The position numbers and the translations under genes were made by a program. The notes beneath the pieces are model-generated. The model made no database searches. It saw only the letters and a list, made by a program, of their open reading frames with translations, and had not been told where the DNA came from. Below are positions 1-11,900 of a DNA stretch of 11,995 nucleotides, one piece after another. The DNA is from an archaeon. GTDB lineage: Archaea > Iainarchaeota > Iainarchaeia > Iainarchaeales > CSSED10-239. Numbering within the stretch: position 1 is the stretch's first letter; every line of letters begins with the position of its first letter. The DNA lies in the NCBI GenBank assembly GCA_035387745.1, contig DAOOON010000008.1, positions 23,525-35,519 on the forward strand, read 5' to 3'.

Positions 1-1302
1 AAAATAAGATTGGATTCTAATGAGCCAATGATTGTAATACTTGGCAAATACAAAAGATTATTTTTAGTAAAAAAAGAAAACAATAGAACAAATATAATTT
101 CTGAATATCCTTTATCTACAGGAGTAAATGGCTTTGGTTGTGAAACCGATAGTTTAAAAACGCCAATGGGCTTATTTAAAATTGTACAAAAAGTTGGACA
201 AAATTGCTCGCCTTTCCAAATAATTGGAGCTAGTGGTTGCCAATATAGTGATGGCCATCCTGTTATTGCAAGTAAAAACACAGGAACTGCATACGTCGTT
301 ACAAGAAAGCTAGTAATTGATGGTCTTGAAAAAGAAAACATAGGATTAGGTTGTGATAATGGTAACAGAAATACAATCTATAGAGGGATATATATTCACG
401 GAACAAATAAAGAGAACTCAATGGGTCAGCAAAGATCTCATGGTTGTATAAGAATGCTAAATAACGATGTGATTTCTCTTTTTGACCAGATAGAAAATGG
501 TACATATGTTTATGTTTATAACTCCGAGATCAGTTATTCTAATCTTTTAGATTTAGAAAATCAATTTGCAAGTAATGGAACAAGCTTAAATCAATTTGTA
601 TTTTTTAGTTGGTTTAATCTATTTTTCCCACCAGTTATAGAGCCCACAAGGCCAAAACCTAAAACAAAAGAAGAAATAATTAATTCTTTAGCCAAAGGAA
701 CAGGTAATTGTTATACCACTAATGGGAACACATTAACTACATTAAGATCAGGAGATTTAGGTTTAACAACAAAAGTAAATACCAGAAGAACAAAAAATAG
801 TGTGGTTGTTCCAAGTACCCACTCTGTTTCGTTATCAGATATTTATACAATTGCAAAAGATAGGCCAAATAATTATAGAGCAGACAATAAATTTTTAACT
901 GCAATTCCGTCACTATATAATCTTTGTGCGATATATGGCGTAGATCCAATTTTTATTTTAGCATTCTTTAAAAGAGAAAAATCAATGTATAATATGTTAG
1001 CAGGAAATTATAATAATGGAGAGCTAACTGCGACAAACAATCCATCAGGGATAAAAGCAACAAATGGCTGTGCTTGTGGTGGTAGCAAAGCGCGCAATAC
1101 TGAATTTTGTGTATACCCTACGTTAGATGCTGGTTTTGAAGCAACCTTAATAAATCTCAAAAATAATTATTCTGGTAGAGTATTATCTACTGGTTCTAAC
1201 AAGAACAGAGGCGTTGCAGAAAAATGGAATCCTGGTGGCACACCAAGTTATGGTAGAGATTTAGTTAATTTTATAAATCAATTTTATGGTTATATTAACT
1301 AA
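1..1302 (+). CDS. Two-domain cell-wall enzyme: an L,D-transpeptidase (YkuD-fold) domain fused to a C-terminal GH73/FlgJ-like N-acetylglucosaminidase-like domain; probably 5'-partial
   Basis: The ORF track gives 10..1302 (TTG at 10; first ATG at 28). The frame is open back to nt 1 (aaa ata aga), and no signal peptide precedes the catalytic domain, so the gene may continue upstream. YkuD signature: 'IYIHGTNKENSMGQQRSHGCIRMLNNDV' (His...Ser-x-Gly-Cys-x-Arg, Cys codon tgt 445-447). The C-terminal half, 'VDPIFILAFFKREKSMYN...NNPSGIKA...EFCVYPTLDAGFEATLINLKNNY', follows the glucosaminidase layout (Glu-x-Ser, NN-x-x-GIK, F-x-x-Y-x-(3)-x-S/G-F-x-x). Stop TAA at 1300-1302. Confidence 0.8.
   Translation, partial: KIRLDSNEPMIVILGKYKRLFLVKKENNRTNIISEYPLSTGVNGFGCETDSLKTPMGLFKIVQKVGQNCSPFQIIGASGCQYSDGHPVIASKNTGTAYVVTRKLVIDGLEKENIGLGCDNGNRNTIYRGIYIHGTNKENSMGQQRSHGCIRMLNNDVISLFDQIENGTYVYVYNSEISYSNLLDLENQFASNGTSLNQFVFFSWFNLFFPPVIEPTRPKPKTKEEIINSLAKGTGNCYTTNGNTLTTLRSGDLGLTTKVNTRRTKNSVVVPSTHSVSLSDIYTIAKDRPNNYRADNKFLTAIPSLYNLCAIYGVDPIFILAFFKREKSMYNMLAGNYNNGELTATNNPSGIKATNGCACGGSKARNTEFCVYPTLDAGFEATLINLKNNYSGRVLSTGSNKNRGVAEKWNPGGTPSYGRDLVNFINQFYGYIN
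28..525 (+). other. L,D-transpeptidase catalytic (YkuD) domain
   Basis: 'MIVILGKYKRLFLV...YPLSTGVNGFGCETDSLKTPMGLFKI...IYIHGT...SHGCIRMLNNDVISLF' matches the conserved order of YkuD motifs (TP-x-G-x-F, HG, S-x-GC-[IV]-R-[ML]-x-N-x-D). Confidence 0.8.
892..1299 (+). other. GH73 / FlgJ-like glucosaminidase-like domain (muramidase-type peptidoglycan hydrolase fold)
   Basis: 'FLTAIPSLYNLCAIYGVDPIFILAFFKREKSMYNMLAGNYNNG...NNPSGIKA...FCVYPTLDAGFEATLINL'. Compare the family pattern 'GI-x-PS...AQAALESGWG...NN-x-FGIK...F-R-x-Y-x-S...S-x-x-DY'. This is similarity by eye only. Confidence 0.55.
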
Positions 1303-1963
1303 ATTTAAGTAAAGGGTCTCTAATCTTTAGAGTTTTTCCTTTCTTTGCTTTTGTAGAATAGTACCTTTTTCCGTGTTCCACCAAAAGAGCATGATATTCT
1401 TGATACACTTTAAAATCTCTTGGAAGGTTATCCATAAATAGTTTTTGTATTTCTTCGTATTTTGCATTCTTTTTAATTAGTTTTAGATTTAGTAATATTC
1501 TTCTAGTGTAAGTATCAACAACAAATATTGGGTCTCTATGAGCATAAAGAAGAATAGAGTCTGCAGTTTCTTTTCCAATACCTTTAACAGAAAGAAGCTC
1601 ATGTCTTGTTGGCATTCGATCTTTTAAAGTTAGATAAAATTTAGAAATATCAACAAGTCTTTCATATTTTTGATTATAATAGCTAAGATTATTTATTGCG
1701 TGCTTAATTGTTCTAGAATCGCTTTCAATTATTGCTTTTGGATTTAACAGATCATTTTTTTTAATATTAAATATTGCTTTTTCTACATTTGTCCAAGAGT
1801 TTGCTTGTGTTAGTATTGCTCCAACATATACTTCAAATATCTGTTTATGTGTTTTAATTAGAAAATACTTTCCTGGATGATAGCCAATATCTGAAAGCGG
1901 CCACCAGCCTTGTGGCCCGTAGTTAATAAATAAAGTATTATATATTTCTTTTATTTCGTTCAT
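1295..1963 (-). CDS. HhH-GPD superfamily DNA glycosylase, endonuclease III-related (COG2231 / MagIII-like), without Fe-S cluster cysteines
   Basis: 222-aa ORF, ATG at 1961-1963, stop TAA (complement of 1295-1297). Motifs: 'YGPQGWWP' near the N-terminus, 'GAILTQANSW', helix-hairpin-helix 'LLSVKGIGKETADSILLYA' (Lys131), then 'VVDTYTRR' (Asp150). The Lys-Asp spacing is comparable to Nth K120/D138. The C-terminus 'HALLVEHGKRYYSTKAKKGKTLKIRDPLLKFS' contains no Cys. Confidence 0.85.
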   Translation of the reverse strand: MNEIKEIYNTLFINYGPQGWWPLSDIGYHPGKYFLIKTHKQIFEVYVGAILTQANSWTNVEKAIFNIKKNDLLNPKAIIESDSRTIKHAINNLSYYNQKYERLVDISKFYLTLKDRMPTRHELLSVKGIGKETADSILLYAHRDPIFVVDTYTRRILLNLKLIKKNAKYEEIQKLFMDNLPRDFKVYQEYHALLVEHGKRYYSTKAKKGKTLKIRDPLLKFS

Positions 1964-2073
1964 ATTTATCTGTAGTTTAATTTGATTATTATAATCTATA
2001 TATAATAAAATATATTTATAAATACTTCAGCTCAGTATATTTAAGTTGAATTTTGGTTTTTTGGGGATTTAAA
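1964..2073. promoter_or_regulatory. Divergent intergenic region, presumably carrying promoters for both the glycosylase gene (-) and the giant gene (+)
   Basis: A 110-nt, extremely AT-rich spacer between two divergently oriented starts. TATA-like strings: 'tttataaata' (2015-2024), 'tatattta' (about 2036-2043), 'tataat' (about 1989-1994). A purine patch 'ggggat' lies 6-7 nt upstream of ATG 2074. No recognisable Shine-Dalgarno sequence precedes the minus-strand ATG. Exact promoter elements cannot be assigned without knowing the domain of life. Confidence 0.4.
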
Positions 2074-2142
2074 ATGAATAGAAAATTTCTTGTTTTTATA
2101 ACTATATTTGCTATTGTTCTTTCCCTTAATTTAATTTACGCA
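2074..2142 (+). other. N-terminal Sec-type signal peptide of the giant protein
   Basis: Basic n-region (NRK), a 17-residue hydrophobic core (FLVFITIFAIVLSLNLI), and a small residue at -1 ('IYA|S'). Confidence 0.75.
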
Positions 2143-5100
2143 AGCACTCTTTCTGTTGATAAGAACGAAACCTATCTAGGAGACACTGTTGTAATAACAG
2201 GAACCGGATTTTCTCCAAGTTCAACACTTGTTTTACAAAATAACCTTGAGCCAAACTCTGCTTGGTGGGATGGATATAATGAACAATGGGGTTTTCCAAC
2301 CTTTGTTACAACAGACGAAAGCGGTAATTTTACATATAATTGGACAGTGCCTTTTGATTTTAGAATTTCTCCAGGTAAACAATATTTTTCCGTAGGCAAT
2401 AATATATCTGCAACAATTTATTGGAATGGTGGAGGAGATTATCCGACTTCTAAAAATAAAACAATATGTGATGGGAATTATTGTTATGTTACTTCAACAT
2501 ATACAAATCCAAATGGCGGTGTTGAAAAATTTAATATGTCAACAGGAGCAAGAGAATGTAATGCTTCTGTTGCGGTTACAGGAACAGGAATAGCAATAGA
2601 TGGGACATATATATACACAACATATGCTGCAACATCAAACAATCTTAGAAGAACAGCAATGGCAGATTGTACAGGAACATCAACATTTACTACTGCCGGC
2701 TCTAATACATATTCTGTTGCTATTTCCAATGGTTATGCTTTTTTTGGTTATAATGTTAATATTGCCCCAAGAAAATATGAAAATCTTTCTACAACTCCTT
2801 CACAAGTTGTAGCATTTGCGCCAGCATCAAGAAATTCTATTGCAAACTACATTTGTGTTACTCCTGATGCAACAAAAGTCGTTGTTGGCTATGCTGATGG
2901 TAATGTGTTGGCATTTGATTACACAACAGGAGCAACATTATGGAATTCTGATCCAGATGATGATGTTACTCAAGCAATTTCTGGGATGCATTGTGATAAT
3001 GACAAAATATATGTTGCAAAAGCTTACAACTCTACAACAAACGGGCCACTGTTTGGTGGTTTTGCATATGCCTTAAGTGCTTCTGATGGAGCTTTGGTTT
3101 GGAGAAGCGAAAGAATAGATAGTCATTATGTTTATAGTTCATATACTAACGTTGCTTGTGATTCTGTAAATTGTTATGCGTCAGTTTTATCTCCTCCACT
3201 CGGGGGTGCAGGAATTAATGGTGCTCCAATTATTCAAATAGACAAGACTACTGGCGAAATTGGTTGGGTAAAATGGAGATCTTGGCTTCCAGCAAGCACG
3301 GGGGATTATGGTACTAGCACAACACATCAAAGTCCAATGGATTTGTGGGTGGATTCTGATGAAAATGGTTTTATTTATCCGGTTTATTCTGGAGGGAGAA
3401 TACAAAAACTTTCAAAAAATGATGTTAGTGTTCAATCTTTCCCAGATACAAATCTTTGGATAAGAAGCAATACTAATCTTTATAATTTTGTAATGAACCC
3501 AACAAAGAATGTTTTCTATAGCAATGAAAGACCAAGTTTTAATTTTAAAGCAATAGATAACTATGGTCAGTATATGGACGCTGATGATAATAGATTTAAT
3601 ACCTCTCATTTAAAATTTAGTACAATTAATGCTTATAATGAATTTACTGCAGCAGAGGCCGGTTCTGCTACAGTTGCCTCACAATTTATGGATCCAAGAA
3701 TTATGTCTGTTTATTCTGCAACAGCAACACTTCCAAATCCTACACCATATAATTATTTAAAATTCATGTATGACGAATATGACAGTGGTGTATTTTGTGA
3801 AACTGCAGTTTATAACACAAAATTATTTGGTTGGCATATCAACAACAGATATTGTTTATATGAAAATCTAGAAGTTAATAATGCAACACTTAATCACACA
3901 CAAAATGGTGTAAAGCTTGCTTCTATTGCAAATTACTTTTTAGTAAATCCTAATAAATGGAACAATTTTCCAATCACAAAAACATTTGGAACAGATAATT
4001 GGACTTGGTCATCAAGTCACAACCCTACTTATGATCAAATATTAGGTTATGCAACAAGATTTGGTTCTGATTTTAATGAAGCTTGGTTTAATCAATTAGG
4101 TCAAGGAACTTCTTTTAACACAAACACAGGAACAACTTCTTTAATAGATTATATTGATGCAACTCAAGATTTTAATAATGCTGATCCAAGATTACAAAAA
4201 TGGCATGAATCTTATTTCTTATTTAAACCTCTTGGTTCAGGGGCAGACGGAAACAGACATTGGCAATATATTGAAAATGACACTAATATGATTGCTACTC
4301 CAATAACCGTTGTTCAAGGAACAAATCAATCTGGAAGTTATTTGATTGGTGCAGATACTTTTTCAAATAGAATAGATTTCAATGCGACAGAAGCAGGAAT
4401 ACTAGAAAGAACAAACGAACCATTCTGGTTTGATGTTAATTTCATAGATAGCATAAATTCAGATTGTTCAGACATTGTTGTAACAGACATTACAGATACT
4501 CCAATTGGTTTATGGCAACTTGATTCTGAAACTTGTACAGCAAATAATTATTACACATTGTTTGTTCAAGACAATTTTACTTTAGGACAAGAAAAACAAT
4601 ATAGATTATATTATAATTCTCCAACAGCAGCAGTTACTCCAGGAGGAACAACAGACTTAATTACTAGTTTAGTTTCTGGAACCTGTGCTGCAGGAACAGA
4701 TATTATTGATGTAAATAGTACTAATTGGTATAGATGGGTGCAGCCAGGAGTTGGTGCAGTAGCTGCTAACCAATTATATTTTAATTTTGGTGGAAGTTCA
4801 AATACTTGGTTTAATCATGCGACAACAAGATATGCGTTAAGAGCAGGGTATTTAAATAGTCAATCTGCAGGAACGGGTGCAGGGTCAGTAACAAATACAC
4901 TTGGAACCGCTCTAGCTACTTTTACTTCAAGGTGTTATCAAAGAAGCTATAATAAAGACAAGATATTTACACGAATTGACATGAATACTGCAAACTTTAC
5001 GATTGCTCCACACACTCCAACCGAAATTAATCCAAATGCAACAACAACATTTACAAGGAAGATAATGAGTCGTTGGTATTTCTTTAATGGAAATGGAAGA

Positions 5101-8100
5101 ATAAGAATAATGTTTAAACTGGATGAACCATTACCAGTAATGACTACTGGTATTTCACAAACATATCACCCTTATTTTTATTTTGGAATGTATGCTTTAG
5201 TTCCACAAGGAACAGCAACAGTTGCTGCAAATAATTTTGTTAACTGGTCAGGAAGAAAAGAATTAATGGATGAATATACTCCTGTACAATTGTCTCCTGA
5301 TAAAAAGTCAGCGATATTAACTCCTAGTCCTTTACCATTGACTTTTACAATAGACTATAATGGTGAACACTTCCCAACGGTTTCTTCTGCAAGTAGCAAG
5401 GTTGGCGGTGGTTGTACCGTACATAAGGTTTGGCCATATTTTTCTTGGAGACCAATTGATCCCGTAACAACAACAAATGCAACAACTTTTGCTTCAGCTT
5501 ATACTACTGACTTTATATCTTGTGATGAAGATTTAAATGGCACAATTCCTGATATTGGAAATGATGGTTATGTTAATGTATTTCCAAAAGAATCAATCTA
5601 TGGAACAGGATTAAACAGATTTGTTGACCCAAACTATATTGCGAAGTTTTATTTAAAGCCAAATCTCTATATTCCTGACAATAGAGAAAACAGATGGCTT
5701 CCACCACTAGCATTAAATTCACAATATGGAACATCTGCAAAAGTAAGTACAATTATTTTAGATGTTTGTCCAACAGAAGAATATGGTTATAAAGGTTATG
5801 ATGATTTTTTAGCAGATTTAGATGATTTAATCTCAAGTTCATCAATACACAAAGTTGAAGAAAACACAACTAATATTCCTTGTGCAACATCTATTACCAT
5901 TTTTAGTACTAATACCGGTTCGATAGGTAAATATTTCTTATTCCAAAGAGATGTTAATGTTGTTGTAGCAGATGTTTCACGACCAGATGCACCATATCCA
6001 AGTTATCTTTATGATCCAACAACAGGTGCTTTATCAATAAATGGAAGTTTAGATTATACAAATGCTCAAAAATCAACACAATATCTTGGTAAATGGTTTT
6101 TTACGTCAAGTTCTGATCCTTATGTAATAAGCGGTTATGCAACAACAGGTGCTGAACAATTACAGGGTGCTAAAAGATATGCTTGGGCACCAAGCTTTGC
6201 TTTTAATAAGAAAGTTTATTCTGAGAATTTATTTTGGAATAAAAGCATGTCAAATTTAACTTATCAACAAAGTCCTTGTGCTTGGAATTTTTCAACAAAC
6301 TATTGGGGAGACATGGATTTTGGTCCAGGCTGGAAGAAAACAATGTCAACGACTCAGCAAGGAACAATTTGTCCAAGAAATGAAAGTAATATGGAACACT
6401 ATTCTTCTTTTAGAATGGCGCTTGCTTCTTTGTATCCAGCAAATGCTTTAGTTGTTACTGCGATTGATAATGTAATAGATGGTAGACCAAATAAAGTTAC
6501 AACCATAAATGATCTTGGTATTGATGCATCAATGTTTTCTAGACATAACTCTTTATGGGATTATAATCATTATAGCGATTACACACAAGTTTTAAGTGAT
6601 TTTTCTGAATTAACAGAAGGCACAAAACATTCTAATGATGAGCCTTGGCAATGTGATTTCTCACGATATGATTCTAAAAATTTCTGTATAGTTCCTGCAA
6701 CAACAACAACATTAATTTATACTGCAACTCCCGGAGTATTAACTGCTTCTACAACAAGCGGCATGTGGTCTCCATATTACCAATCAAATAGAGAATATTC
6801 TGTTCTTAGAAATTATTTTAACAATGTTTGGTTTAATACTGCCGCAATGTTTCCAACATATGATTTTTTAACAGAAAATACAATCTTTCCAATGCTTGGA
6901 GAAACAGAATTTACTTATGATACACTTTATACAAGTAATAATCCAAACGATTATAATGATTTAATGGATAAATTATTTCCAAGATTGCACGGAGCACTTT
7001 ATCAAAATCAATTCCTTTTAAGAGATTGGAAAAATACAGCATTTATGGTTCTTTCAGGAGGAGACACAAGAGAATATCTTCGTGGAACAACAATTAATGT
7101 TTCAGGATTTATGATGAAAGATAGTGACAGTCTAGCAAATGCGCCAATCATTGTTCAGGTCTTTAAAAACTCTGCACCAGAATCCCCACTAACAACTTAT
7201 CAAACAATAACTGATGCCAATGGAGACTTTAATTATTCTTATACAATTACTCCAACAGCAGAACCAGGTCTTTATTTCTTTAAGGCAATTTACAATAATG
7301 GAGAAATAACTGGGACAACGTCATTTAAAGTTTCGGCTCTTAATATTGCAACGGTTTTAGATAAATCAGTTTATGTTGCAGGAGATAGTGTTTTTGTTAC
7401 AACAACAATAAGTGATGCAATAATTGGAGATTTAATAAGTGATGCAACAGTCAATTTAGTAATAAGTGGGCCAGCAGGAAATACTTTATTAACGACCCCC
7501 ATGACTAATGCCGGATTTGGAGTATATACTTATTCTTTCCAGTTGTCTCCTGAAACTGTAAATGGAACATATGTAGTAACAATTACCGCAACAACCGCAG
7601 ATAACACAGGCAGTGCAACAACAACATTTGGAGTTGGTGTGGCAGTAAGTTCAATTAATATAATTAACAATTTCCAGATTTCTGATGCAAATATAGAATA
7701 TGTAACTCAAGTAACAACTTTACAAAATGTTGTTGCAACACCACTATTAGAATTTACTATCAATTATCAATTGTCTGGTGGATTAGATTTAGAAAACATT
7801 ACTTTATTTACAAAAGATGATATTGTTCTTGAAAGAGTTTATGATTTTGATGATCTTAATAGAACAACATATTATCTTTCATTAGATTCTTCAAATAATC
7901 CTATAGTTTATATAATGGCAAACTTTGAAGCAAGTCAAATAAGAACAATGACTTTTATTGCGGAGAATAAATATTATGAACACATAGAACAAGATTATAA
8001 TAGTGTAAACAATTATTCTTCTGAACTTTCAAGTTATTGTTCAATTCTTTTAACCCCTGCTGCCCAAGCAGATTGTGCAAATGCAAATACTTATTTAATA

Positions 8101-11100
8101 GATATAAATGATTATTACACTCAAGCACAAACAGCATCAAGCATAGATCAATTTTACAATATAAAAATAGCAATTGGTGAAAAATATATTTTGTTTATGG
8201 ACATTTTAGATTCTTTAAGAATCTTAGCAACCAATCAAGCAAGCTGTCAAATATTTGTTCCAGGAACTTGGTCTCTTGATTCTAATGTTTCTTTTGCTGT
8301 GTTAATGAATGGGCCATCAAGCATTCCAATTAATGGTTTGACTTTCGATGTCAATCTTTTCAATTATAATTCAGTTCTTGTTGATTCATATTCTGTAGAT
8401 GAATATGGCGAGGGATGGTATTATTCTTCTTTTTCAACTCCAAGTACGGGCGGAGGGTATAATCTAAGAATTGATCAAAATATTGGGACAAATAGGTTCC
8501 AGTGTGCTGCATCTTTTGATGTTAATCAGGCATCTGGATCAGTAATTGGTGGAGAGATTGGGGGGGGATTAACTGCAGATCAAAATGCAACGCTTTATGA
8601 GATATTAGGAATTGTTACAGACATTAATGCAACATTAAATGATCTTGAAGAAATAATATTTGATATTAATGCAATAGTAACAGACATAAATTCAACAGTT
8701 TCTGATATAGATTCAAGATTAAGTACTCTTGAGACAAGCCTATCTGATATTAATTTGTTATTGACTGGAATTGATTCAAATATTAATTACATAATTGGCA
8801 ACATGGCTACAACAACAGACATAACAAATTTAGATTCTACTTTACAAACAATTTTAGGTTATAATGTAGATATTAATCAGACAGTTCATGATTCTGCTAC
8901 TCAACTAAATAATTTGTACGATTTGTTGGACGACATTGATGATCAAATAGATGCAATGAATAATACCATAACTGATATAAACGCCTTAATAACAACTTGT
9001 GAAAATGCTCCAGAAACAAGTATTTGTGCAGATATTAATGGTTTATCAAATCAATTAAATAATATTAATTCTACAATAGATATTATTTCTTCAACAACAC
9101 AAGATATTAATTCAACAACAAGCTCTATGCAAGGCACAATAAATACTTTAAACAACACCTCAAACAGCATTCTTTCAACAGTAACAGACATTAACAATAC
9201 AAGCACATTTATTCTTTCTAAAGTAAACACCATAGAATCAAATACACAAGATATACAATCCAATATAACAACAATAATGTCTGATTTAAATTGTGCAGGA
9301 ACTCCCCCAGAATATAGTGTTTGTGGTAATCTTCTAAATATCAGTTCTTTAATTTCTGATTTTAATATTAGTACACAATTATCACTATTAGATATTTCTA
9401 ATGCATTATCAACAATAGAATATAATCAACAAGATATAAATCAAAGTATATCTTATATTTTAGAAGATTTAAATTGTGAAGACGAAAATGCTAGTCCAAT
9501 CTGTAGCAGTATACAGACCATAATTGATAACACTGATACCTTAGAAACAAGCATTTCGGATTTAAATAATACAATGATAATAATTGGAGACAATGTTTTA
9601 GATATTAATAGTAATACCAACAATGTACTTTTAGGAATATCTGATTTAAATAGCAGTAATCAAGAAATTCTAGATGATCTCTTAAATATTTCAGAAGAAA
9701 TAACAAATACTCAGGGATTGATTTCTGATACCAATTTAAATCTTACAAACTATCTATATGATATTAATGATACTGTAGATGATATAAATGACACAGTAGA
9801 CGACATAGGTGGAACAACAGGGGGAACAAGCGACAAGGTTGATGAGATAAAAGACATAGTACTAAATATAGATAATAATGTTTCTGAAATTAACACCACA
9901 CTAACAGACATTAATACACAACAACAAGCAATTCAAGCAACGCTAGCAAGCATGCAATTGACTTTAAGTGATATTAATGACACTACAACAAACATTTACA
10001 CAGACCAACAATCTAGATTTACGGTTGCTATAAGTGATTTTAGTGAAATTGGTTCTGGTGACGTCTATAGAGCAAAAGTCTGGGTGTTTGATTATGATGG
10101 TTCTCCAAAAGATGCAGATAGCAATGATGCTAAAATTACACTTTATGATCCAGAAAGAAACATAATTACAGAAAATATAACAATGACAAGATTATCAGAA
10201 GGAGTATACACTTATGATTATAATGTAGGAACTGGCCAGATTGCAGGAATCTGGGAAGCAGTGGCAACCGTTTTAGTAAATGGAGAAAATGTTAGCCCAA
10301 GTGATTTCTGGGAATTAGTTGGTAATCCTCCAGAAGTTAGAATTAATTCTATTGTTGATACAAGTATTCCAACAATAACAGCAGACGTTATAATTACAAA
10401 CGAAGGAAGTGCAAGTCAAGAGTATCAATACGAATATTGTATTGTTTCTGATCAATCAAATATGTGTGGTGGAGGAGACGATGTTGATTATTCAAGTGGT
10501 GCAAAGTTAATACTTCCCGGACAAACGTGGAATACGGAGTTGACTTTAAATGTTCCAACTGTTGGAACATATTGGTTTAAGATTAAAGTTTATTATGGTG
10601 TAGAAATGAGTGCTGCTTCTAAGCAGTTTGTAGCAACGACTGGTGGAACAAACACTGGAGGAACAGGCGGAGGCTCTTCTGATATAAGCGACGTTACAGG
10701 CCTTGTAAGTTTGCCTGTTGCTGTAGGAGAAATTGCAATTATAGAATACCCAACAGATATGACAATAATTCAAGGAGATTATGGATTTTATACCCTTAGA
10801 ATAAAAAATATTGGAAGTATTGATTTATCAGACATTAAATTAACCATTGAAGATTTACCAGAAAGCTGGTGGGAGATACAACAAGAAAAGACAATATTAA
10901 GTCCTAATGAAGAAGGCAGCTTTGTTATAAAGCTAAAAGCACCAATGGATGCTGAAGTAAAAGATACTCTTGTTAAATTTAAAATATCTTCAAAAGAAGA
11001 CACTCGTTTAAGAGAAAGCATTCTTAGAGTTCTTGAAAAATCTCTAGCAGAAATTAGATTTGTAGATGTTAAAGTTTCTCCAATTAAAGTAAATGGTTAT

Positions 11101-11568
11101 GGAGAGATTGAGTTTATTATTCAGAATATGAGCCTATATGATCAAAATATAACTGCGACACTTCTTGTTCCAAGAGATTGGCAAATAGAAGATAGCGATC
11201 AAGCTATTATTTTAAAAGGCGGAGAAACAAAGCGCATAATTTTTGTTGTTAATGCATCATATATTAGCGGGGTAAGAGACTTAGTGTTTGTGATAAAGAA
11301 CAATACCGGCCAGAGATTTAAAACAGGAGAAGATAAACTATTTAAGCAATTGATGGTAATAGTAATAAATGACGAGAAAGTAAAAAGCGAATTGAATTTC
11401 TTTAATCAGTTTAATGGAATAGGTATTGGTATTCTTATAATTATCTTGTTATTGGTTATTTTAATAATAATCTTTTTATTTGGCATAAAAAATAATAAAA
11501 AACAAAGACCATCTTTAGGATATAATAGAAACATTTTAGATAAATTAATGGGTTTGAGAAGAAAATGA
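2074..11568 (+). CDS. Giant (about 3,160 aa) modular, membrane-anchored cell-surface protein; putative adhesin or surface fibre
   Basis: A single uninterrupted ORF (track 2053..11568, TTG). I prefer ATG 2074 because it yields a canonical signal peptide, 'MNRKFLVFITIFAIVLSLNLIYA|ST', and has 'gggga' just upstream. It ends with a hydrophobic helix plus a basic tail and TGA at 11566-11568. An open frame of this length in AT-rich DNA is itself strong coding evidence. Confidence 0.93.
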   Translation: MNRKFLVFITIFAIVLSLNLIYASTLSVDKNETYLGDTVVITGTGFSPSSTLVLQNNLEPNSAWWDGYNEQWGFPTFVTTDESGNFTYNWTVPFDFRISPGKQYFSVGNNISATIYWNGGGDYPTSKNKTICDGNYCYVTSTYTNPNGGVEKFNMSTGARECNASVAVTGTGIAIDGTYIYTTYAATSNNLRRTAMADCTGTSTFTTAGSNTYSVAISNGYAFFGYNVNIAPRKYENLSTTPSQVVAFAPASRNSIANYICVTPDATKVVVGYADGNVLAFDYTTGATLWNSDPDDDVTQAISGMHCDNDKIYVAKAYNSTTNGPLFGGFAYALSASDGALVWRSERIDSHYVYSSYTNVACDSVNCYASVLSPPLGGAGINGAPIIQIDKTTGEIGWVKWRSWLPASTGDYGTSTTHQSPMDLWVDSDENGFIYPVYSGGRIQKLSKNDVSVQSFPDTNLWIRSNTNLYNFVMNPTKNVFYSNERPSFNFKAIDNYGQYMDADDNRFNTSHLKFSTINAYNEFTAAEAGSATVASQFMDPRIMSVYSATATLPNPTPYNYLKFMYDEYDSGVFCETAVYNTKLFGWHINNRYCLYENLEVNNATLNHTQNGVKLASIANYFLVNPNKWNNFPITKTFGTDNWTWSSSHNPTYDQILGYATRFGSDFNEAWFNQLGQGTSFNTNTGTTSLIDYIDATQDFNNADPRLQKWHESYFLFKPLGSGADGNRHWQYIENDTNMIATPITVVQGTNQSGSYLIGADTFSNRIDFNATEAGILERTNEPFWFDVNFIDSINSDCSDIVVTDITDTPIGLWQLDSETCTANNYYTLFVQDNFTLGQEKQYRLYYNSPTAAVTPGGTTDLITSLVSGTCAAGTDIIDVNSTNWYRWVQPGVGAVAANQLYFNFGGSSNTWFNHATTRYALRAGYLNSQSAGTGAGSVTNTLGTALATFTSRCYQRSYNKDKIFTRIDMNTANFTIAPHTPTEINPNATTTFTRKIMSRWYFFNGNGRIRIMFKLDEPLPVMTTGISQTYHPYFYFGMYALVPQGTATVAANNFVNWSGRKELMDEYTPVQLSPDKKSAILTPSPLPLTFTIDYNGEHFPTVSSASSKVGGGCTVHKVWPYFSWRPIDPVTTTNATTFASAYTTDFISCDEDLNGTIPDIGNDGYVNVFPKESIYGTGLNRFVDPNYIAKFYLKPNLYIPDNRENRWLPPLALNSQYGTSAKVSTIILDVCPTEEYGYKGYDDFLADLDDLISSSSIHKVEENTTNIPCATSITIFSTNTGSIGKYFLFQRDVNVVVADVSRPDAPYPSYLYDPTTGALSINGSLDYTNAQKSTQYLGKWFFTSSSDPYVISGYATTGAEQLQGAKRYAWAPSFAFNKKVYSENLFWNKSMSNLTYQQSPCAWNFSTNYWGDMDFGPGWKKTMSTTQQGTICPRNESNMEHYSSFRMALASLYPANALVVTAIDNVIDGRPNKVTTINDLGIDASMFSRHNSLWDYNHYSDYTQVLSDFSELTEGTKHSNDEPWQCDFSRYDSKNFCIVPATTTTLIYTATPGVLTASTTSGMWSPYYQSNREYSVLRNYFNNVWFNTAAMFPTYDFLTENTIFPMLGETEFTYDTLYTSNNPNDYNDLMDKLFPRLHGALYQNQFLLRDWKNTAFMVLSGGDTREYLRGTTINVSGFMMKDSDSLANAPIIVQVFKNSAPESPLTTYQTITDANGDFNYSYTITPTAEPGLYFFKAIYNNGEITGTTSFKVSALNIATVLDKSVYVAGDSVFVTTTISDAIIGDLISDATVNLVISGPAGNTLLTTPMTNAGFGVYTYSFQLSPETVNGTYVVTITATTADNTGSATTTFGVGVAVSSINIINNFQISDANIEYVTQVTTLQNVVATPLLEFTINYQLSGGLDLENITLFTKDDIVLERVYDFDDLNRTTYYLSLDSSNNPIVYIMANFEASQIRTMTFIAENKYYEHIEQDYNSVNNYSSELSSYCSILLTPAAQADCANANTYLIDINDYYTQAQTASSIDQFYNIKIAIGEKYILFMDILDSLRILATNQASCQIFVPGTWSLDSNVSFAVLMNGPSSIPINGLTFDVNLFNYNSVLVDSYSVDEYGEGWYYSSFSTPSTGGGYNLRIDQNIGTNRFQCAASFDVNQASGSVIGGEIGGGLTADQNATLYEILGIVTDINATLNDLEEIIFDINAIVTDINSTVSDIDSRLSTLETSLSDINLLLTGIDSNINYIIGNMATTTDITNLDSTLQTILGYNVDINQTVHDSATQLNNLYDLLDDIDDQIDAMNNTITDINALITTCENAPETSICADINGLSNQLNNINSTIDIISSTTQDINSTTSSMQGTINTLNNTSNSILSTVTDINNTSTFILSKVNTIESNTQDIQSNITTIMSDLNCAGTPPEYSVCGNLLNISSLISDFNISTQLSLLDISNALSTIEYNQQDINQSISYILEDLNCEDENASPICSSIQTIIDNTDTLETSISDLNNTMIIIGDNVLDINSNTNNVLLGISDLNSSNQEILDDLLNISEEITNTQGLISDTNLNLTNYLYDINDTVDDINDTVDDIGGTTGGTSDKVDEIKDIVLNIDNNVSEINTTLTDINTQQQAIQATLASMQLTLSDINDTTTNIYTDQQSRFTVAISDFSEIGSGDVYRAKVWVFDYDGSPKDADSNDAKITLYDPERNIITENITMTRLSEGVYTYDYNVGTGQIAGIWEAVATVLVNGENVSPSDFWELVGNPPEVRINSIVDTSIPTITADVIITNEGSASQEYQYEYCIVSDQSNMCGGGDDVDYSSGAKLILPGQTWNTELTLNVPTVGTYWFKIKVYYGVEMSAASKQFVATTGGTNTGGTGGGSSDISDVTGLVSLPVAVGEIAIIEYPTDMTIIQGDYGFYTLRIKNIGSIDLSDIKLTIEDLPESWWEIQQEKTILSPNEEGSFVIKLKAPMDAEVKDTLVKFKISSKEDTRLRESILRVLEKSLAEIRFVDVKVSPIKVNGYGEIEFIIQNMSLYDQNITATLLVPRDWQIEDSDQAIILKGGETKRIIFVVNASYISGVRDLVFVIKNNTGQRFKTGEDKLFKQLMVIVINDEKVKSELNFFNQFNGIGIGILIIILLLVILIIIFLFGIKNNKKQRPSLGYNRNILDKLMGLRRK
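2143..2430 (+). other. Ig-like (IPT/TIG- or Big-like) beta-sandwich domain
   Basis: 'LSVDKNETYLGDTVVITGTGFSPSSTLVL...TTDESGNFTYNWTVPFDFRISPGKQYFSV'. The 'GD-x-V-x-ITG-x-GF' and 'D-x-x-G-x-F-x-Y' strands are typical of bacterial and archaeal Ig-like surface modules. Confidence 0.55.
2455..3420 (+). other. Roughly 7-bladed beta-propeller (PQQ-like / YVTN-like repeats)
   Basis: Seven recurrences of a 'D-x-x-x-x-Y' strand: CDGNYCY (aa139), IDGTYIY (182), SNGYAFF (225), PDATKVVV (271), CDNDKIY (314), CDSVNCY (369), DENGFIY (436). Spacings are 43, 43, 46, 43, 55 and 67 aa. PQQ-propeller-like 'G-x-[LV]-x-A-x-D-x-x-TG-x-x-x-W' strands are also present ('DGNVLAFDYTTGATLWN', 'YALSASDGALVWRS', 'IIQIDKTTGEIGWVKW'). 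Residue numbers count from the track start at 2053. Confidence 0.6.
4405..4632 (+). other. Possible DUF2341-like beta-sandwich module
   Basis: 'ERTNEPFWFDVNFIDSINSDCSDIVVTDITDTPIGLWQLDSETCTANNYYTLFVQDNFTLGQEKQYRLYYNSPTAA' resembles the DUF2341 pattern (feature list, then 'DI-x-F-x-D...L-x-x-x-x-E-x-W...vkv...Y-x-YYGN...A'). Recognition is by eye only. Confidence 0.3.
7081..7645 (+). other. Two tandem Ig-like beta-sandwich domains (CarboxypepD_reg / Big-like)
   Basis: 'TINVSGFMMKD...IIVQVFKN...TITDANGDFNYSYTITPTAEPGLYFFKAIY' and 'VLDKSVYVAGDSVFVTTTISD...VNLVISGPAGNTLL...GVYTYSFQLSPETVNGTYVVTITAT'. Both contain 'TD-x-x-G-x-F' and 'G-x-Y-x-[VF]-x-[IA]' strands typical of these folds. Confidence 0.55.
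8560..8567 (+). repeat. G8 homopolymer tract inside the giant CDS (codons att-GGG-GGG-GGa, 'IGGG')
   Basis: Read directly: '...ggagagattg gggggggatt...'. The g at 8560 plus seven g at 8561-8567 gives 8 consecutive G. It is the longest G/C run I saw in the window. Confidence 0.95.
9760..9801 (+). repeat. Tandem 21-bp in-frame duplication encoding DINDTVD twice
   Basis: 'gatattaatgatactgtagat' (9760-9780) and 'gatataaatgacacagtagac' (9781-9801). The peptides are identical, with 4 nucleotide differences, all at synonymous third positions. Confidence 0.9.
10015..10635 (+). other. Post-stalk Ig-like domain followed by a CARDB-like domain
   Basis: 'YRAKVWVFDYDGSPKD...ITLYDPERNII...GVYTYDYNVGTGQIAGIWEAVATV', then 'PEVRINSIVDTSIPTITADVIITNEGSASQEYQYEYCIV...LILPGQTWNTELTLNVPTVGTYWFKIKVYYG' (CARDB-type 'V-x-[IV]-x-N-x-G' and 'G-x-Y-x-x-x-[IV]-x-V' strands). 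A Gly/Thr linker 'TTGGTNTGGTGGGSS' follows (10636-10680). Confidence 0.5.
10728..11305 (+). other. Two membrane-proximal CARDB / NEW3-like beta-sandwich domains
   Basis: 'YTLRIKNIGSIDLSDIKLTIEDLPESWWEIQQEKTILSPNEEGSFVIKLKAPMDAEVKDTLVKFKISS' and 'GEIEFIIQNMSLYDQNITATLLVPRDWQIEDSDQAIILKGGETKRIIFVVNAS'. Both show the 'N-x-G...P-x-[GD]-W...L-x-x-G-E-x-x-x-x-x-x-[IV]-x-x-P' layout seen in archaeal and bacterial S-layer-type modules. Confidence 0.5.
11416..11487 (+). other. C-terminal transmembrane anchor of the giant protein, followed by a 27-aa basic tail
   Basis: 'GIGIGILIIILLLVILIIIFLFGI' (24 uncharged residues), then 'KNNKKQRPSLGYNRNILDKLMGLRRK'. By the positive-inside rule the tail is cytoplasmic and the bulk is extracellular. 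Confidence 0.85.
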
Positions 11569-11900
11569 TATCTGGAAGTTTAATGTTTGTGTTGTTTATA
11601 AATTTTGTTATAATCATGTGCGTGGTTATTTTTTTCTTAAGGCACATGTCTTTAAGATTTAGAGAAGAATTTGACGAAACAAATAAAAGACTAGAAATGA
11701 TTGAACATAATATGCAACACAATGAATTGAGATTAAAACATTTAGAATTAAGAATAGACAAGCACCATGATGTTTCTGAGCATCACTATAAAAAACCAGA
11801 GATACACAAAGATATCGAAGACATGAAAATAGTTGTAAAAAAGATAAATCAAAATACAGAAAAGATCTATAAAAAAACAGAAGAACTATTCAAAAAGTAA
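11565..11900 (+). CDS. Small (111 aa) single-pass membrane protein with a charged, His-rich coiled-coil-like domain
   Basis: Its ATG (11565-11567) overlaps the giant gene's TGA (11566-11568) as ATGA. It has an N-terminal hydrophobic helix, 'SLMFVLFINFVIIMCVVIFFL', then 'RHMSLRFREEFDETNKRLEMIEHNMQHNELRLKHLELRIDKHHDVSEHHYKKPEIHKD...'. Stop TAA at 11898-11900. No family recognised. Confidence 0.6.
   Translation: MISGSLMFVLFINFVIIMCVVIFFLRHMSLRFREEFDETNKRLEMIEHNMQHNELRLKHLELRIDKHHDVSEHHYKKPEIHKDIEDMKIVVKKINQNTEKIYKKTEELFKK

Follow-up and report, generated by a model that had tools for sequence, protein, structure and literature searches.

The DNA analysed here (the window, 11,995 nt of archaeal sequence) is dominated by a single open reading frame. 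This raises the questions of whether such a gene is real in an archaeon presumed to have a reduced genome and, if it is, what its giant product does. The ORF spans positions 2053/2074 to 11568 of the + strand and fills 79% of the window, in agreement with the roughly 80% estimated originally. Comparison of four contigs, which came from four samples and were assembled separately with different assemblers, revealed 0 mismatches across the 9,495 nt of the gene and all shared flanks. Tandem repeats in the sequence are short (18-27 nt). Complete agreement among four separate assemblies excludes a chimera, and the 9.5-kb gene is real; an assembly artefact had been named as one of the results that would overturn the original prediction.

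The AspRS gene located on a longer contig, which contains the window DNA at 100% identity, gave best named hits to DPANN archaea only, and relatives of the giant gene were found on contigs labelled Woesearchaeota, Diapherotrites (MAGs) or unclassified archaea. Judged by the linked AspRS gene, the organism is a DPANN archaeon, and the premise of a reduced genome is supported. The features of the locus are as follows (evidence in brackets; entries with no bracketed evidence were read from the sequence):

1997..2068, + strand: putative archaeal promoter and ribosome-binding region
1997-2005 and 2015-2024, + strand: TATA-like A/T-rich boxes
2063-2068, + strand: Shine-Dalgarno-like GGGGAT, 5 nt upstream of the ATG at 2074
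2074..11568, + strand: giant gene, 3,164 codons and stop; protein of 3,164 aa
2074..2145, + strand: signal peptide, aa 1-24, MNRKFLVFITIFAIVLSLNLIYA/S (hydropathy)
2146..2439, + strand: N-terminal Ig-like beta-sandwich, aa ~25-122 (AF2: 8 strands, pLDDT about 75-90)
2449..3555, + strand: PQQ/BamB-type beta-propeller of ~7 blades, aa ~126-494 (AF2, Foldseek, family profile)
3556..7059, + strand: orphan conserved core, mostly beta, aa ~495-1662 (best-conserved family region)
4306..4638, + strand: core sub-domain, beta-sandwich with terminal YRLYYNSP motif, aa ~745-855 (AF2 pLDDT 50-74)
7066..7635, + strand: two MG2 (alpha-2-macroglobulin-type Ig-like) domains, aa ~1665-1755 and 1760-1854 (Pfam PF01835)
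7636..8523, + strand: head-stalk junction, aa 1855-2150, moderately conserved
8524..8571, + strand: Gly-rich linker, aa 2151-2166
8572..10053, + strand: heptad coiled-coil stalk, aa ~2167-2660 (3.5-residue periodicity)
8998..9027, + strand: Cys loop 1, CENAPETSIC, aa 2309-2318 (sequence; loop type common to relatives)
9292..9324, + strand: Cys loop 2, CAGTPPEYSVC, aa 2407-2417 (sequence and relatives)
9475..9504, + strand: Cys loop 3, CEDENASPIC, aa 2468-2477 (sequence and relatives)
9802..9831, + strand: Gly-rich hinge, DIGGTTGGTS, aa 2577-2586
10066..10647, + strand: MG2-like (aa 2665-2731) and, by pattern, CARDB-like (aa ~2745-2858) sandwiches (profile matches/pattern)
10648..10719, + strand: Gly/Thr linker, aa 2859-2882
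10771..11358, + strand: two NEW3-like (NPCBM_assoc) sandwiches, aa 2900-2972 and ~2990-3095 (PF10633; second copy by pattern only)
11398..11499, + strand: single C-terminal TM segment, aa 3109-3142, core about 3114-3138 (hydropathy maximum 3.83)
11500..11565, + strand: short basic cytoplasmic tail
11565..11900, + strand: 111-aa TM and coiled-coil ORF, translationally coupled (ATGA overlap with the giant gene stop)

From the N- to the C-terminus the protein therefore consists of a signal peptide, an Ig-like domain, a propeller, the orphan core, MG2 domains, the stalk, MG2-/NEW3-like sandwiches, a TM helix and a basic tail. Hydropathy analysis found two hydrophobic segments only, aa 3-28 and aa 3109-3142, and a comparable hydrophobic N-terminus is present in every full-length relative displayed. 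The basic tail has a motif, P-(S)-L-G-Y...N...D...G-L, in common with P0002 and P0003. The signal peptide, TM helix and basic tail noted earlier were thus recovered and, taken together, they lead directly to the proposed head-stalk-anchor topology. From this topology the product is predicted to be a Sec-exported, type-I (C-terminally) membrane-anchored surface protein. Its ectodomain is acidic and accounts for every one of the 34 cysteines; N-x-S/T sequons are mildly over-represented there (67, against 53 ± 6 in shuffled sequences).

The AF2 model of aa 22-520 (pLDDT 78, pTM 0.78) shows 8 strands followed by ~29 strands, as expected from the Ig-like domain and approximately 7-bladed propeller predicted at this end. 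The Ig-like sandwich has no Pfam match. In the propeller pLDDT is mostly 80-97, and a Foldseek search with the model retrieved 7-8-bladed propellers (E 2e-11, probability 1.0). The family profile matched quinoprotein ADH/PQQ dehydrogenases and BamB in the PDB (E 1e-7), and Pfam PQQ_2 was matched at E 4.5e-5, under the family cut-off. These sequence matches are to blade repeats and do not cover PQQ-binding enzymes end to end. The domain shares the PQQ-type blade repeat and propeller fold with BamB and PQQ-dependent dehydrogenases, but by sequence it matches them in 1-2 blades only, and nothing indicates that it binds PQQ or has a BAM-type role.

The core that follows (about 1,170-1,200 aa) corresponds to the ~1,200 aa in which no motif could be placed originally, and Pfam, NCBIfam, PHROGs and PDB profiles likewise gave zero matches and no catalytic family or motif. 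With its 12 invariant cysteines the core is predicted to be disulfide-rich. Alignment of 13 sequences, with identity down to 25%, has 93 invariant columns, among them the motif H1491-x4-D1496-x2-H1499. The invariant residues are mostly G, C, P and aromatics, which is a structural signature. As AF2 modelled the core at a pLDDT of only 30, there is room for an enzymatic or lattice-forming role. The sole sub-domain with some AF2 confidence, aa ~745-855, matched Pfam in 0/7 family members; by eye only, it looks like DUF2341.

The two Ig-like domains reported downstream of the core were identified as MG2 (PF01835, E 2e-19, 70 bits against a curated cut-off of 32.8), the first copy being found in 5/7 family members. 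At least one domain of the giant protein is above the PF01835 cut-off, with weaker copies elsewhere. Unlike alpha-2-macroglobulin, with which MG2 is shared, the protein has the Ig-like MG module only, and Pfam did not detect thioester, bait-region or receptor-binding domains. The junction with the stalk has no family match; it consists of a beta-rich part, a short helical part with a C-x11-C loop and a second beta-sandwich-like part.

Periodicity analysis revealed an unbroken 3.5-residue repeat across aa 2157-2660, reaching 22x background power, with long constant heptad registers and no 11/3 (undecad) signal. The predicted ~485-aa heptad coiled coil was thereby confirmed, as the propeller had been by structure prediction. 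Matches of the stalk in Pfam and NCBIfam were coiled-coil family noise, and no solved coiled coil related to it by sequence was found. The stalk of ~490 aa is divided into five segments of about 139, 88, 50, 101 and 76 aa by three Cys-x8-9-Cys loops, all conserved, and by the GGTTGG hinge. It is thus interrupted and not a single continuous rod, a detail absent from the original prediction.

The CARDB/NEW3-like modules predicted next to the membrane were confirmed in part. For NEW3, PF10633 was matched in 4/5 family members (best E 1.9e-6), the giant protein itself being under the cut-off at E 0.006. CARDB was matched in 1/5 members only (E 0.27), and MG2 in 5/5 (best E 3.5e-5).

A search of 1.84 billion representative proteins with the core profile returned no more than 11 clusters, every one of them belonging to the giant family itself, whose roughly 11 clusters are all uncharacterised. 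No full-length match to a characterised family was found, in keeping with the original remark on the combination of modules. Within the family, conservation is highest in the core (50-90% identity) and lowest in the stalk. Stalks of 0, ~500 or ~900 (up to ~920) aa contain 0, 1-3 or 4-6 Cys loops respectively, so that loops of the same type recur in relatives and their number grows with stalk length. Proteins sharing 60-66% identity differ almost two-fold in this length, and in other members the stalk is missing. In P0006 the core and an MG2 domain are retained, the N-terminus is unrelated and the stalk is absent.

No conserved partner genes surround the family members. A rare, patchy family of this kind shows the usual pattern of accessory host-interaction genes and not that of core envelope genes. 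Neighbouring genes also code for signal-peptide proteins, one of which, a secreted protein of 1,561 aa, has peptidoglycan-directed YkuD and glucosaminidase domains. Such neighbours favour an attachment fibre, but synteny with the YkuD protein is limited to the closest relative, which counts against it. A 36%-identical copy of the 111-aa ORF follows the orthologue in L006; its product may be a cytoplasmic-side partner of the giant protein, and its membership of the system is one that we infer.

The main rival to an attachment fibre is a tetrabrachion-like S-layer or canopy, in which membrane-anchored oligomeric stalks would bring heads into lateral contact as an outer layer above a wide pseudo-periplasm. 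Tetrabrachion, the archaeal surface glycoprotein of the Staphylothermus marinus S-layer, has the same layout of beta-rich N-terminal arms, a parallel coiled-coil stalk of ~70 nm, similar to the length predicted here, and anchoring in the membrane of its own cell; the pairing of a coiled-coil stalk with anchoring by a C-terminal TM segment is the hallmark of the archaeal S-layer anchors tetrabrachion and SlaB and counts against a fibre (PMC5744192). Colossal S-layer proteins with many Ig domains (~290 kDa) are known from other archaea, and PySLP (Pyrobaculum, Thermoproteota; 292 kDa) likewise has a stalk and a membrane-distal crown, although its 37-nm stalk consists of Ig-like domains where ours is a coiled coil (bioRxiv 10.64898/2026.08.21.746120). 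Homologue searches found no homology between PySLP and the giant protein. The acidity, sequon enrichment, NEW3-like sandwiches and C-terminal TM helix of the giant protein would also fit an S-layer, and its conserved cysteines and strongly conserved head would suit lattice contacts. NEW3/CARDB-type sandwiches are common among archaeal S-layer-like proteins, a further point against the fibre. However, tetrabrachion is about half the size, no sequence similarity to it was detected, its descriptions lack the propeller, orphan core and MG2 modules, and its stalk is a right-handed undecad, whereas ours is heptad, broken by Cys loops and unrelated in sequence to solved coiled coils. The near two-fold stalk differences and stalk-less members fit a fixed lattice geometry poorly, the N-terminal head is exchanged in P0006, and the family is very rare and scattered among DPANN lineages instead of lineage-wide. 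We consider an S-layer role less likely than a fibre.

A surface-tethered role for the core, as a hydrolase, lyase or binding module that has escaped recognition and would process polymers or a host envelope at a distance, by analogy with the proteases borne by the tetrabrachion stalk, appears unlikely. Its conservation, the invariant polar residues including the H-D-H motif, the adjoining peptidoglycan-active protein and the occurrence of PQQ-type propellers in enzymes as well as scaffolds would agree with this. Yet profiles found no catalytic family or motif, the invariant set is structural in character, and the propeller matches stop at blade repeats. Least probable is a membrane-bridging or fusion device, whose heptads near the TM anchor would zipper or refold once the head engaged a host, pulling both membranes together and opening cytoplasmic bridges between DPANN cells and hosts. 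Class I fusogens and tethers are in general laid out in this way, with a head, long heptads and a TM anchor, and the loops and hinge that segment the stalk could let it fold back. The proteins that form DPANN-host bridges are given as not known (PMC11420986). Against fusion, nothing besides the signal peptide and TM helix passes the hydropathy threshold as a fusion-peptide-like segment, profile and structure-database searches gave no similarity to known fusogens, and stalk-less members occur.

Overall, we favour, at about an even chance, an oligomeric, type-I-anchored attachment or host-contact fibre with a distal head on a coiled-coil stalk; the original interpretation is supported, with fibre function itself conjectural. 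A family in which the core is most conserved, and the stalk least conserved and variable in length, agrees with a binding head carried by a spacer of adjustable length. Membership of the DPANN archaea, whose cultured representatives are mostly obligate ectosymbionts (PMC11329633, PMC11420986), argues the same way, as do giant DPANN surface proteins already proposed as host-interaction devices (PMC10266531). Among these, the giant proteins of Nanohaloarchaeota (SPEARE, SVXNc_0300, BNXNv_0298) resemble ours in their Sec signal peptide, huge Ig-rich ectodomain, coiled-coil part, membrane association and proposed host interaction, but they are larger (8,880-9,409 aa for the two from cultured strains, against 3,164 aa), they have a VirB4/TraG-like ATPase domain, and a VirB4/TraG ATPase gene comes after theirs (PMC10266531). 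Neither an ATPase domain nor an ATPase neighbour was found by Pfam, NCBIfam or inspection of surrounding genes, and these proteins were not among the homologues. Trimeric autotransporter adhesins of the YadA/BadA type are adhesion fibres of lollipop design with module-tuned coiled-coil stalks. They share with the giant protein the head-stalk-anchor design and stalk-length variation by module gain or loss, but they are bacterial obligate trimers with a C-terminal outer-membrane beta-barrel anchor, whereas ours would be held in an archaeal membrane by one TM helix, and no homology exists.

In such a fibre, the heptad segments would pair with those of sister chains into a parallel oligomeric coiled coil. 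Laid end to end, the segments (about 454 residues of helix, ~0.15 nm per residue) would give a stalk of about 65-70 nm. A point against this is that the Cys loops could be hairpin turns, which would bend the helices back on themselves and leave a bundle shorter than a 65-nm rod. Provided that disulfides or other structure hold them, the loops could serve as joints or registers between rigid segments. Raised on a beta-sandwich pedestal, the stalk would hold two or more heads of ~230 kDa far beyond the cell envelope, where the distal propeller and orphan core may recognise a ligand presented by another cell or surface, and the reach of the fibre could be tuned through gain or loss of stalk modules.

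The analysis of the window revealed one dominant ORF (2053/2074..11568, plus strand), which fills 79% of the window and encodes a product of 3,164 residues, here called the giant protein. Translation is likely to start at ATG 2074. The putative signals ahead of this codon and the neighbouring genes are as follows.

10-1302, plus strand: last 430 aa of a 1,561-aa protein with a signal peptide (full gene at 4544-9229 of locus L001)
1295-1963, minus strand: HhH-GPD DNA glycosylase (3-methyladenine / endonuclease III-like), between two large secreted-protein genes
1997-2005 and 2015-2024, plus strand: A/T-rich TATA-like boxes in the sequence upstream of ATG 2074
2063-2068, plus strand: Shine-Dalgarno-like GGGGAT in the sequence ahead of ATG 2074
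11565-11900, plus strand: 111-aa ORF downstream of the giant gene; it has a single TM segment, and its C-terminal part is charged and coiled-coil

An Rfam scan of the window gave no match. The exact giant protein is encoded by four contigs from four samples: JGI 3300010355 (on an 81-kb contig), JGI 3300009782, ENA ERZ27257431 and ENA ERZ761564, the last being the window's own contig. The assemblers differed among the four. Comparison of these contigs found 0 DNA mismatches across the giant gene and all common flanks, and the only repeats in the DNA are short tandem ones of 18-27 nt. The original prediction had named an assembly chimera among the outcomes that would undo it; because identical DNA was obtained in four assemblies, a chimera is excluded as far as this is possible without reads.

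The giant protein opens with a textbook signal peptide, MNRKFLVFITIFAIVLSLNLIYA/S. Hydropathy analysis located exactly two hydrophobic segments, at aa 3-28 and aa 3109-3142, and the tail past the second is short and basic, with 8 K/R among the last 26 residues. The predicted signal peptide, TM helix and basic tail were thus all found, and a type-I topology with about 3,085 extracellular residues follows from them. The ectodomain is acidic (D+E 339 vs K+R 163) and contains all 34 cysteines of the protein. N-x-S/T sequons number 67, compared with 53.4 +/- 6.0 in shuffles.

The N-terminal head (aa 22-520) was modelled by AF2 from a 9-sequence family alignment with mean pLDDT 78 and pTM 0.78. Two domains could be seen in this model.

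aa ~25-122: Ig-like 8-stranded sandwich
aa ~126-494: beta-propeller of ~29 strands, corresponding to about seven four-stranded blades

Foldseek against PDB matched the head model to 7- and 8-bladed propellers (best E 2e-11, probability 1.0), among them Fbw7, beta-TrCP, BamB and the designed 8-bladed PQQ-type Tako8/Ika8; BamB and the designed proteins were matched at E ~1e-10 to 1e-11. Independently of Foldseek, a search of PDB sequences with a family profile found PQQ quinoprotein dehydrogenases and BamB at E 1e-7, and Pfam PQQ_2 scored 23.7 bits in the giant protein, just under the cut-off of 27.6. A propeller fold with PQQ-type blade repeats is therefore supported by AF2, Foldseek and profile search, in agreement with the Ig-like domain and roughly seven-bladed propeller first proposed.

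The region between the propeller and the MG2 domains (the core, aa ~495-1662, window 3556-7059) is the stretch of about 1,200 aa in which no motif had been placed. Searches with the single sequence, with each family member and with a profile found nothing like it in Pfam, NCBIfam, PHROGs or PDB. AF2 modelling of aa 466-1662 with a 7-sequence alignment was unusable (mean pLDDT 30), the best-modelled part being a sandwich at aa ~745-855 that ends in YRLYYNSP (pLDDT 50-74). A by-eye assignment of this sandwich to DUF2341 was rejected after none of the seven core sequences gave a Pfam HMM match at E <= 10. Homology of the core to the C-terminal sandwiches was likewise rejected, hhalign having found no internal homology. 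The core is nevertheless the best-conserved part of the family (50-90% identity), the stalk being the worst. Across 13 sequences with identity down to 25% there are 93 invariant core columns, dominated by glycine, cysteine (12), proline and aromatics, and H1491-x4-D1496-x2-H1499 (aa 1491-1499, window 6544-6570) is invariant in all 13. Together the His/Asp motif and the 12 cysteines could make up a metal or active site plus six disulfide bonds. Disulfides outside the cell would be noteworthy in an anaerobic source habitat, which the sample names lead one to suspect.

The two Ig-like domains predicted after the core were identified as MG2 (PF01835) at aa 1760-1854, with E 2e-19 and 70.2 bits against a cut-off of 32.8, and a second, weaker copy directly ahead of it. 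The score places the domain in the MG2 family but does not make the protein a macroglobulin; in the Pfam search at E <= 1, the thioester, bait and receptor-binding domains that true macroglobulins have were all absent. The MG2 domains are followed by a junction of about 300 aa, a Gly-rich linker and then the stalk.

Hydrophobic periodicity of 3.5 residues runs unbroken through aa 2157-2660 with power up to 22x background, which bears out the predicted heptad coiled coil of about 485 aa. The register is constant across 60-100 residues and there is no 11/3 component. Three loops, CENAPETSIC, CAGTPPEYSVC and CEDENASPIC, and a fourth break, the GGTTGG hinge, divide the stalk into segments of about 139, 88, 50, 101 and 76 residues. 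Four of the five have their spectral maximum at 3.46-3.52 residues, the 50-aa third segment having no clear peak, and power at 3.67 is near zero in all of them. The N@d-type stalk motif of trimeric autotransporters was considered and discarded: the recurrent Asn comes after the core Ile and not in the core position.

Between the stalk and the membrane lies a pedestal with the following modules, for which HMM matches were counted in five family members.

MG2-like sandwich: matched in 5 of 5 members, best E 3.5e-5
CARDB-like (PF07705) sandwich: assigned by sequence pattern; matched in 1 of 5 members, E 0.27
Gly/Thr linker: assigned on sequence alone
Two NEW3-like (NPCBM_assoc, PF10633) sandwiches: matched in 4 of 5 members, best E 1.9e-6

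PF10633 in the giant protein itself reached E 0.006 and 17.2 bits (cut-off 24.4). All the modules originally listed were recovered, the NEW3-like sandwiches tentatively, and CARDB is the weakest of the labels. PDB searches with the C-terminal region mostly gave matches to scFv Gly-linkers and to designed Kelch proteins through a short D-x-D-G-S-P motif, all discarded as spurious.

A word-indexed search identified six relatives of 2,224-3,936 aa with 36-66% identity. Homologous proteins P0002-P0011 and those encoded at loci L005-L010 are collinear with the giant protein across the Ig-like domain, propeller, core and MG2, and the alignments cover 58-97% of the length. An exhaustive HMMER search of 1.84 billion cluster representatives, using the core profile, returned 11 proteins only, all of them family members or fragments; members with a full core scored 412-2,249 bits. 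The word-indexed search with the core alignment found P0006 only, which is probably a candidate-list artefact because the exhaustive search recovered the whole family. The combination of modules had been thought unlike any characterised family, and indeed the only relatives are uncharacterised members of this one.

Stalk length falls into three groups, ~0 (P0006 and P0011), ~500 and ~900 aa, and the number of Cys loops grows with it (0, 1-3 and 4-6). P0006 retains only the core and one MG2 domain; it has an unrelated N-terminus of about 390 aa, which gave no match in PHROGs, and no long stalk. Its gene (L011 10001-16675) is surrounded by many tiny ORFs, a Holliday-junction endonuclease and KaiC/DnaB-like ATPases. 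These surroundings look like a mobile element and suggested a viral link, for which an IMG/VR scan with the core profile gave no match.

Distant members carry extra modules between head and stalk. In P0007 (3,936 aa; aa ~1900-2800) and the L007 protein (4,315 aa; L007 8471-21418) about 900-1,300 extra residues are inserted between the MG2 domains and the stalk, part of which looks like a right-handed beta-helix from its sequence, and further modules have been added in the L007 protein, a Woesearchaeota member. The cytoplasmic tail is about 22 aa long in the giant protein and its two closest relatives and consists of 130-230 aa of coiled coil in others; that of P0007 has extra TM segments and a PRC-barrel domain.

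The contigs of the relatives are labelled Woesearchaeota, Diapherotrites or 'uncultured archaeon'. P0007 is encoded on a 341-kb archaeal chromosomal contig with SRP54, ribosomal protein S8e and a DNA_pol_E_B + Metallophos gene, presumably the PolD small subunit. Two family members fall in other bins: one on a 6.3-kb contig binned as Woesebacteria, a CPR bacterium (L008), and one on a 60%-GC contig binned as Methanosarcinales (L009), with GC twice that of the window. Mis-binning would account for both, perhaps because symbiont DNA was grouped with that of a host, and so would horizontal transfer. NCBI labels the giant protein itself 'MAG TPA ... [archaeon]'. The AspRS encoded on a longer contig with the exact window DNA has named best hits solely in DPANN archaea ('archaeon' 86%, Diapherotrites 58%, Woesearchaeota 56% and Aenigmarchaeota 52% identity), in line with the reduced-genome organism originally supposed.

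On longer contigs the giant gene is preceded by genes for a 615-aa and the 1,561-aa protein, both with a signal peptide. In the latter, YkuD L,D-transpeptidase (E 2e-15) and, weakly, glucosaminidase domains were identified; these are peptidoglycan-directed enzyme domains in a DPANN archaeon. Their presence may be a hint that the partner or prey is a bacterium or has a pseudomurein wall. The 3' end of the HhH-GPD gene overlaps the 3' end of the YkuD gene by 8 nt, and its copy at L006, the locus of the closest syntenic relative, is 81% identical. The ATG of the 111-aa ORF overlaps the TGA of the giant gene (ATGA), suggesting that the two are translationally coupled, and the L006 orthologue is likewise followed by a copy, 36% identical. 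Relatives that have no such ORF bear the 130-230-aa coiled-coil tails on the giant protein itself, of which the 111-aa protein could be a split-off functional equivalent; sequence similarity gives this idea no support. Farther downstream are GGACT, KilA-N and AspRS genes and a tRNA. The YkuD/glycosylase/111-aa arrangement is common only to the window and L006, and no partner gene conserved across the family neighbourhoods was found.

An export signal, one anchor at the C-terminus, the module order, the heptad character of the stalk and the contrast between a conserved head and a variable stalk are direct observations. The cautious interpretation first put forward, a candidate attachment fibre of head-stalk-anchor design, is supported. 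The heptad segments would pair with those of sister chains to form a parallel coiled coil. Five segments in series, with about 454 helical residues, would then extend ~65-70 nm on a pedestal of four sandwiches and display several ~230-kDa heads far beyond the envelope. The Cys loops could instead be hairpin turns and not joints, in which case the fibre would be shorter. A conserved distal head on a fast-evolving, length-variable spacer is the pattern expected of a binding device with tuned reach. Such a device is likewise favoured by the shuffling of the N-terminal module, by how rare and patchy the family is and by the fact that cultured DPANN archaea live as ectosymbionts (PMC11329633, PMC11420986). 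We give an even chance to the giant protein being an attachment or host-contact fibre.

The main rival, a tetrabrachion-like envelope protein, is possible but on balance unlikely. The layout is strikingly like that of tetrabrachion (PMC5744192), but the family is rare and two-fold differences in stalk length among close relatives fit poorly with a lattice of fixed geometry. Moreover, the tetrabrachion-type stalk is a right-handed undecad (11/3) whereas that of the giant protein is a heptad, and the stalk sequence found no tetrabrachion entry in PDB, no similarity to solved coiled coils and nothing better than E 0.02, assuming that the set contains the crystallised stalk fragment described in PMC5744192; the comparison concerns the stalk. 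Trimeric autotransporter adhesins share the head-stalk-anchor layout too, but end in an outer-membrane beta-barrel (YadA anchor) where the giant protein has a single TM helix and basic tail, Pfam found no YadA-type domain in it, and its organism is an archaeon. It thus belongs to neither group. A tethered enzyme is improbable, although it has to be considered because the core fold lacks a confident model; the invariant His/Asp motif and the peptidoglycan-directed neighbour speak for it. A membrane-bridging or fusion role is speculative and highly improbable, hydropathy having found no fusion-peptide-like segment.

Giant membrane-anchored surface proteins of reduced-genome archaea are already known as a kind of object and are no surprise in principle; those of DPANN archaea have been proposed to act in host interaction (PMC10266531). 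The SPEARE-type giants of Nanohaloarchaeota have a VirB4/TraG-like ATPase domain and an adjoining VirB4/TraG ATPase gene (PMC10266531), whereas Pfam and NCBIfam found no ATPase domain in the giant protein, whose gene has as neighbours those of the YkuD protein, HhH-GPD glycosylase, 111-aa TM protein and GGACT protein, and no ATPase. Membership can be assigned for single domains only: MG2, the PQQ-type propeller by fold and profile and, tentatively, the NEW3-like sandwiches. SPEARE-type proteins were absent among the homologues found, and a search of the literature on Woesearchaeota surface proteins found nothing relevant. The family is uncharacterised and very rare, and unusual in pairing a 1,170-aa Cys-rich orphan core with a modular, Cys-loop-jointed heptad stalk. 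As a bolder and rather doubtful proposal, the core would be an undescribed fold or fold assembly, a host-recognition and possibly envelope-breaching module of a few DPANN archaea, carried on a length-adjustable, Cys-loop-jointed coiled-coil fibre that is coupled across the membrane to a cytoplasmic coiled-coil partner (the long tail of the relatives or the coupled 111-aa protein), and the whole would be a new class of archaeal cell-cell contact organelle protein.

DPANN archaea need physical contact with a host and the proteins that make it are largely unknown; the components of the Nanobdellota attachment organelle, for instance, are unidentified (PMC11420986). The giant-protein family is a defined, testable candidate for this contact, with a conserved head containing a 1,170-aa region unlike any known family and a stalk whose length varies among close relatives. 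If the head binds a component of the host envelope, a receptor-binding module and, via its ligand, the host of an uncultured lineage would be identified; if the protein is an S-layer protein instead, a tetrabrachion-like architecture arose also in DPANN archaea. Whichever holds, the failure of structure prediction makes the core well worth solving by experiment.
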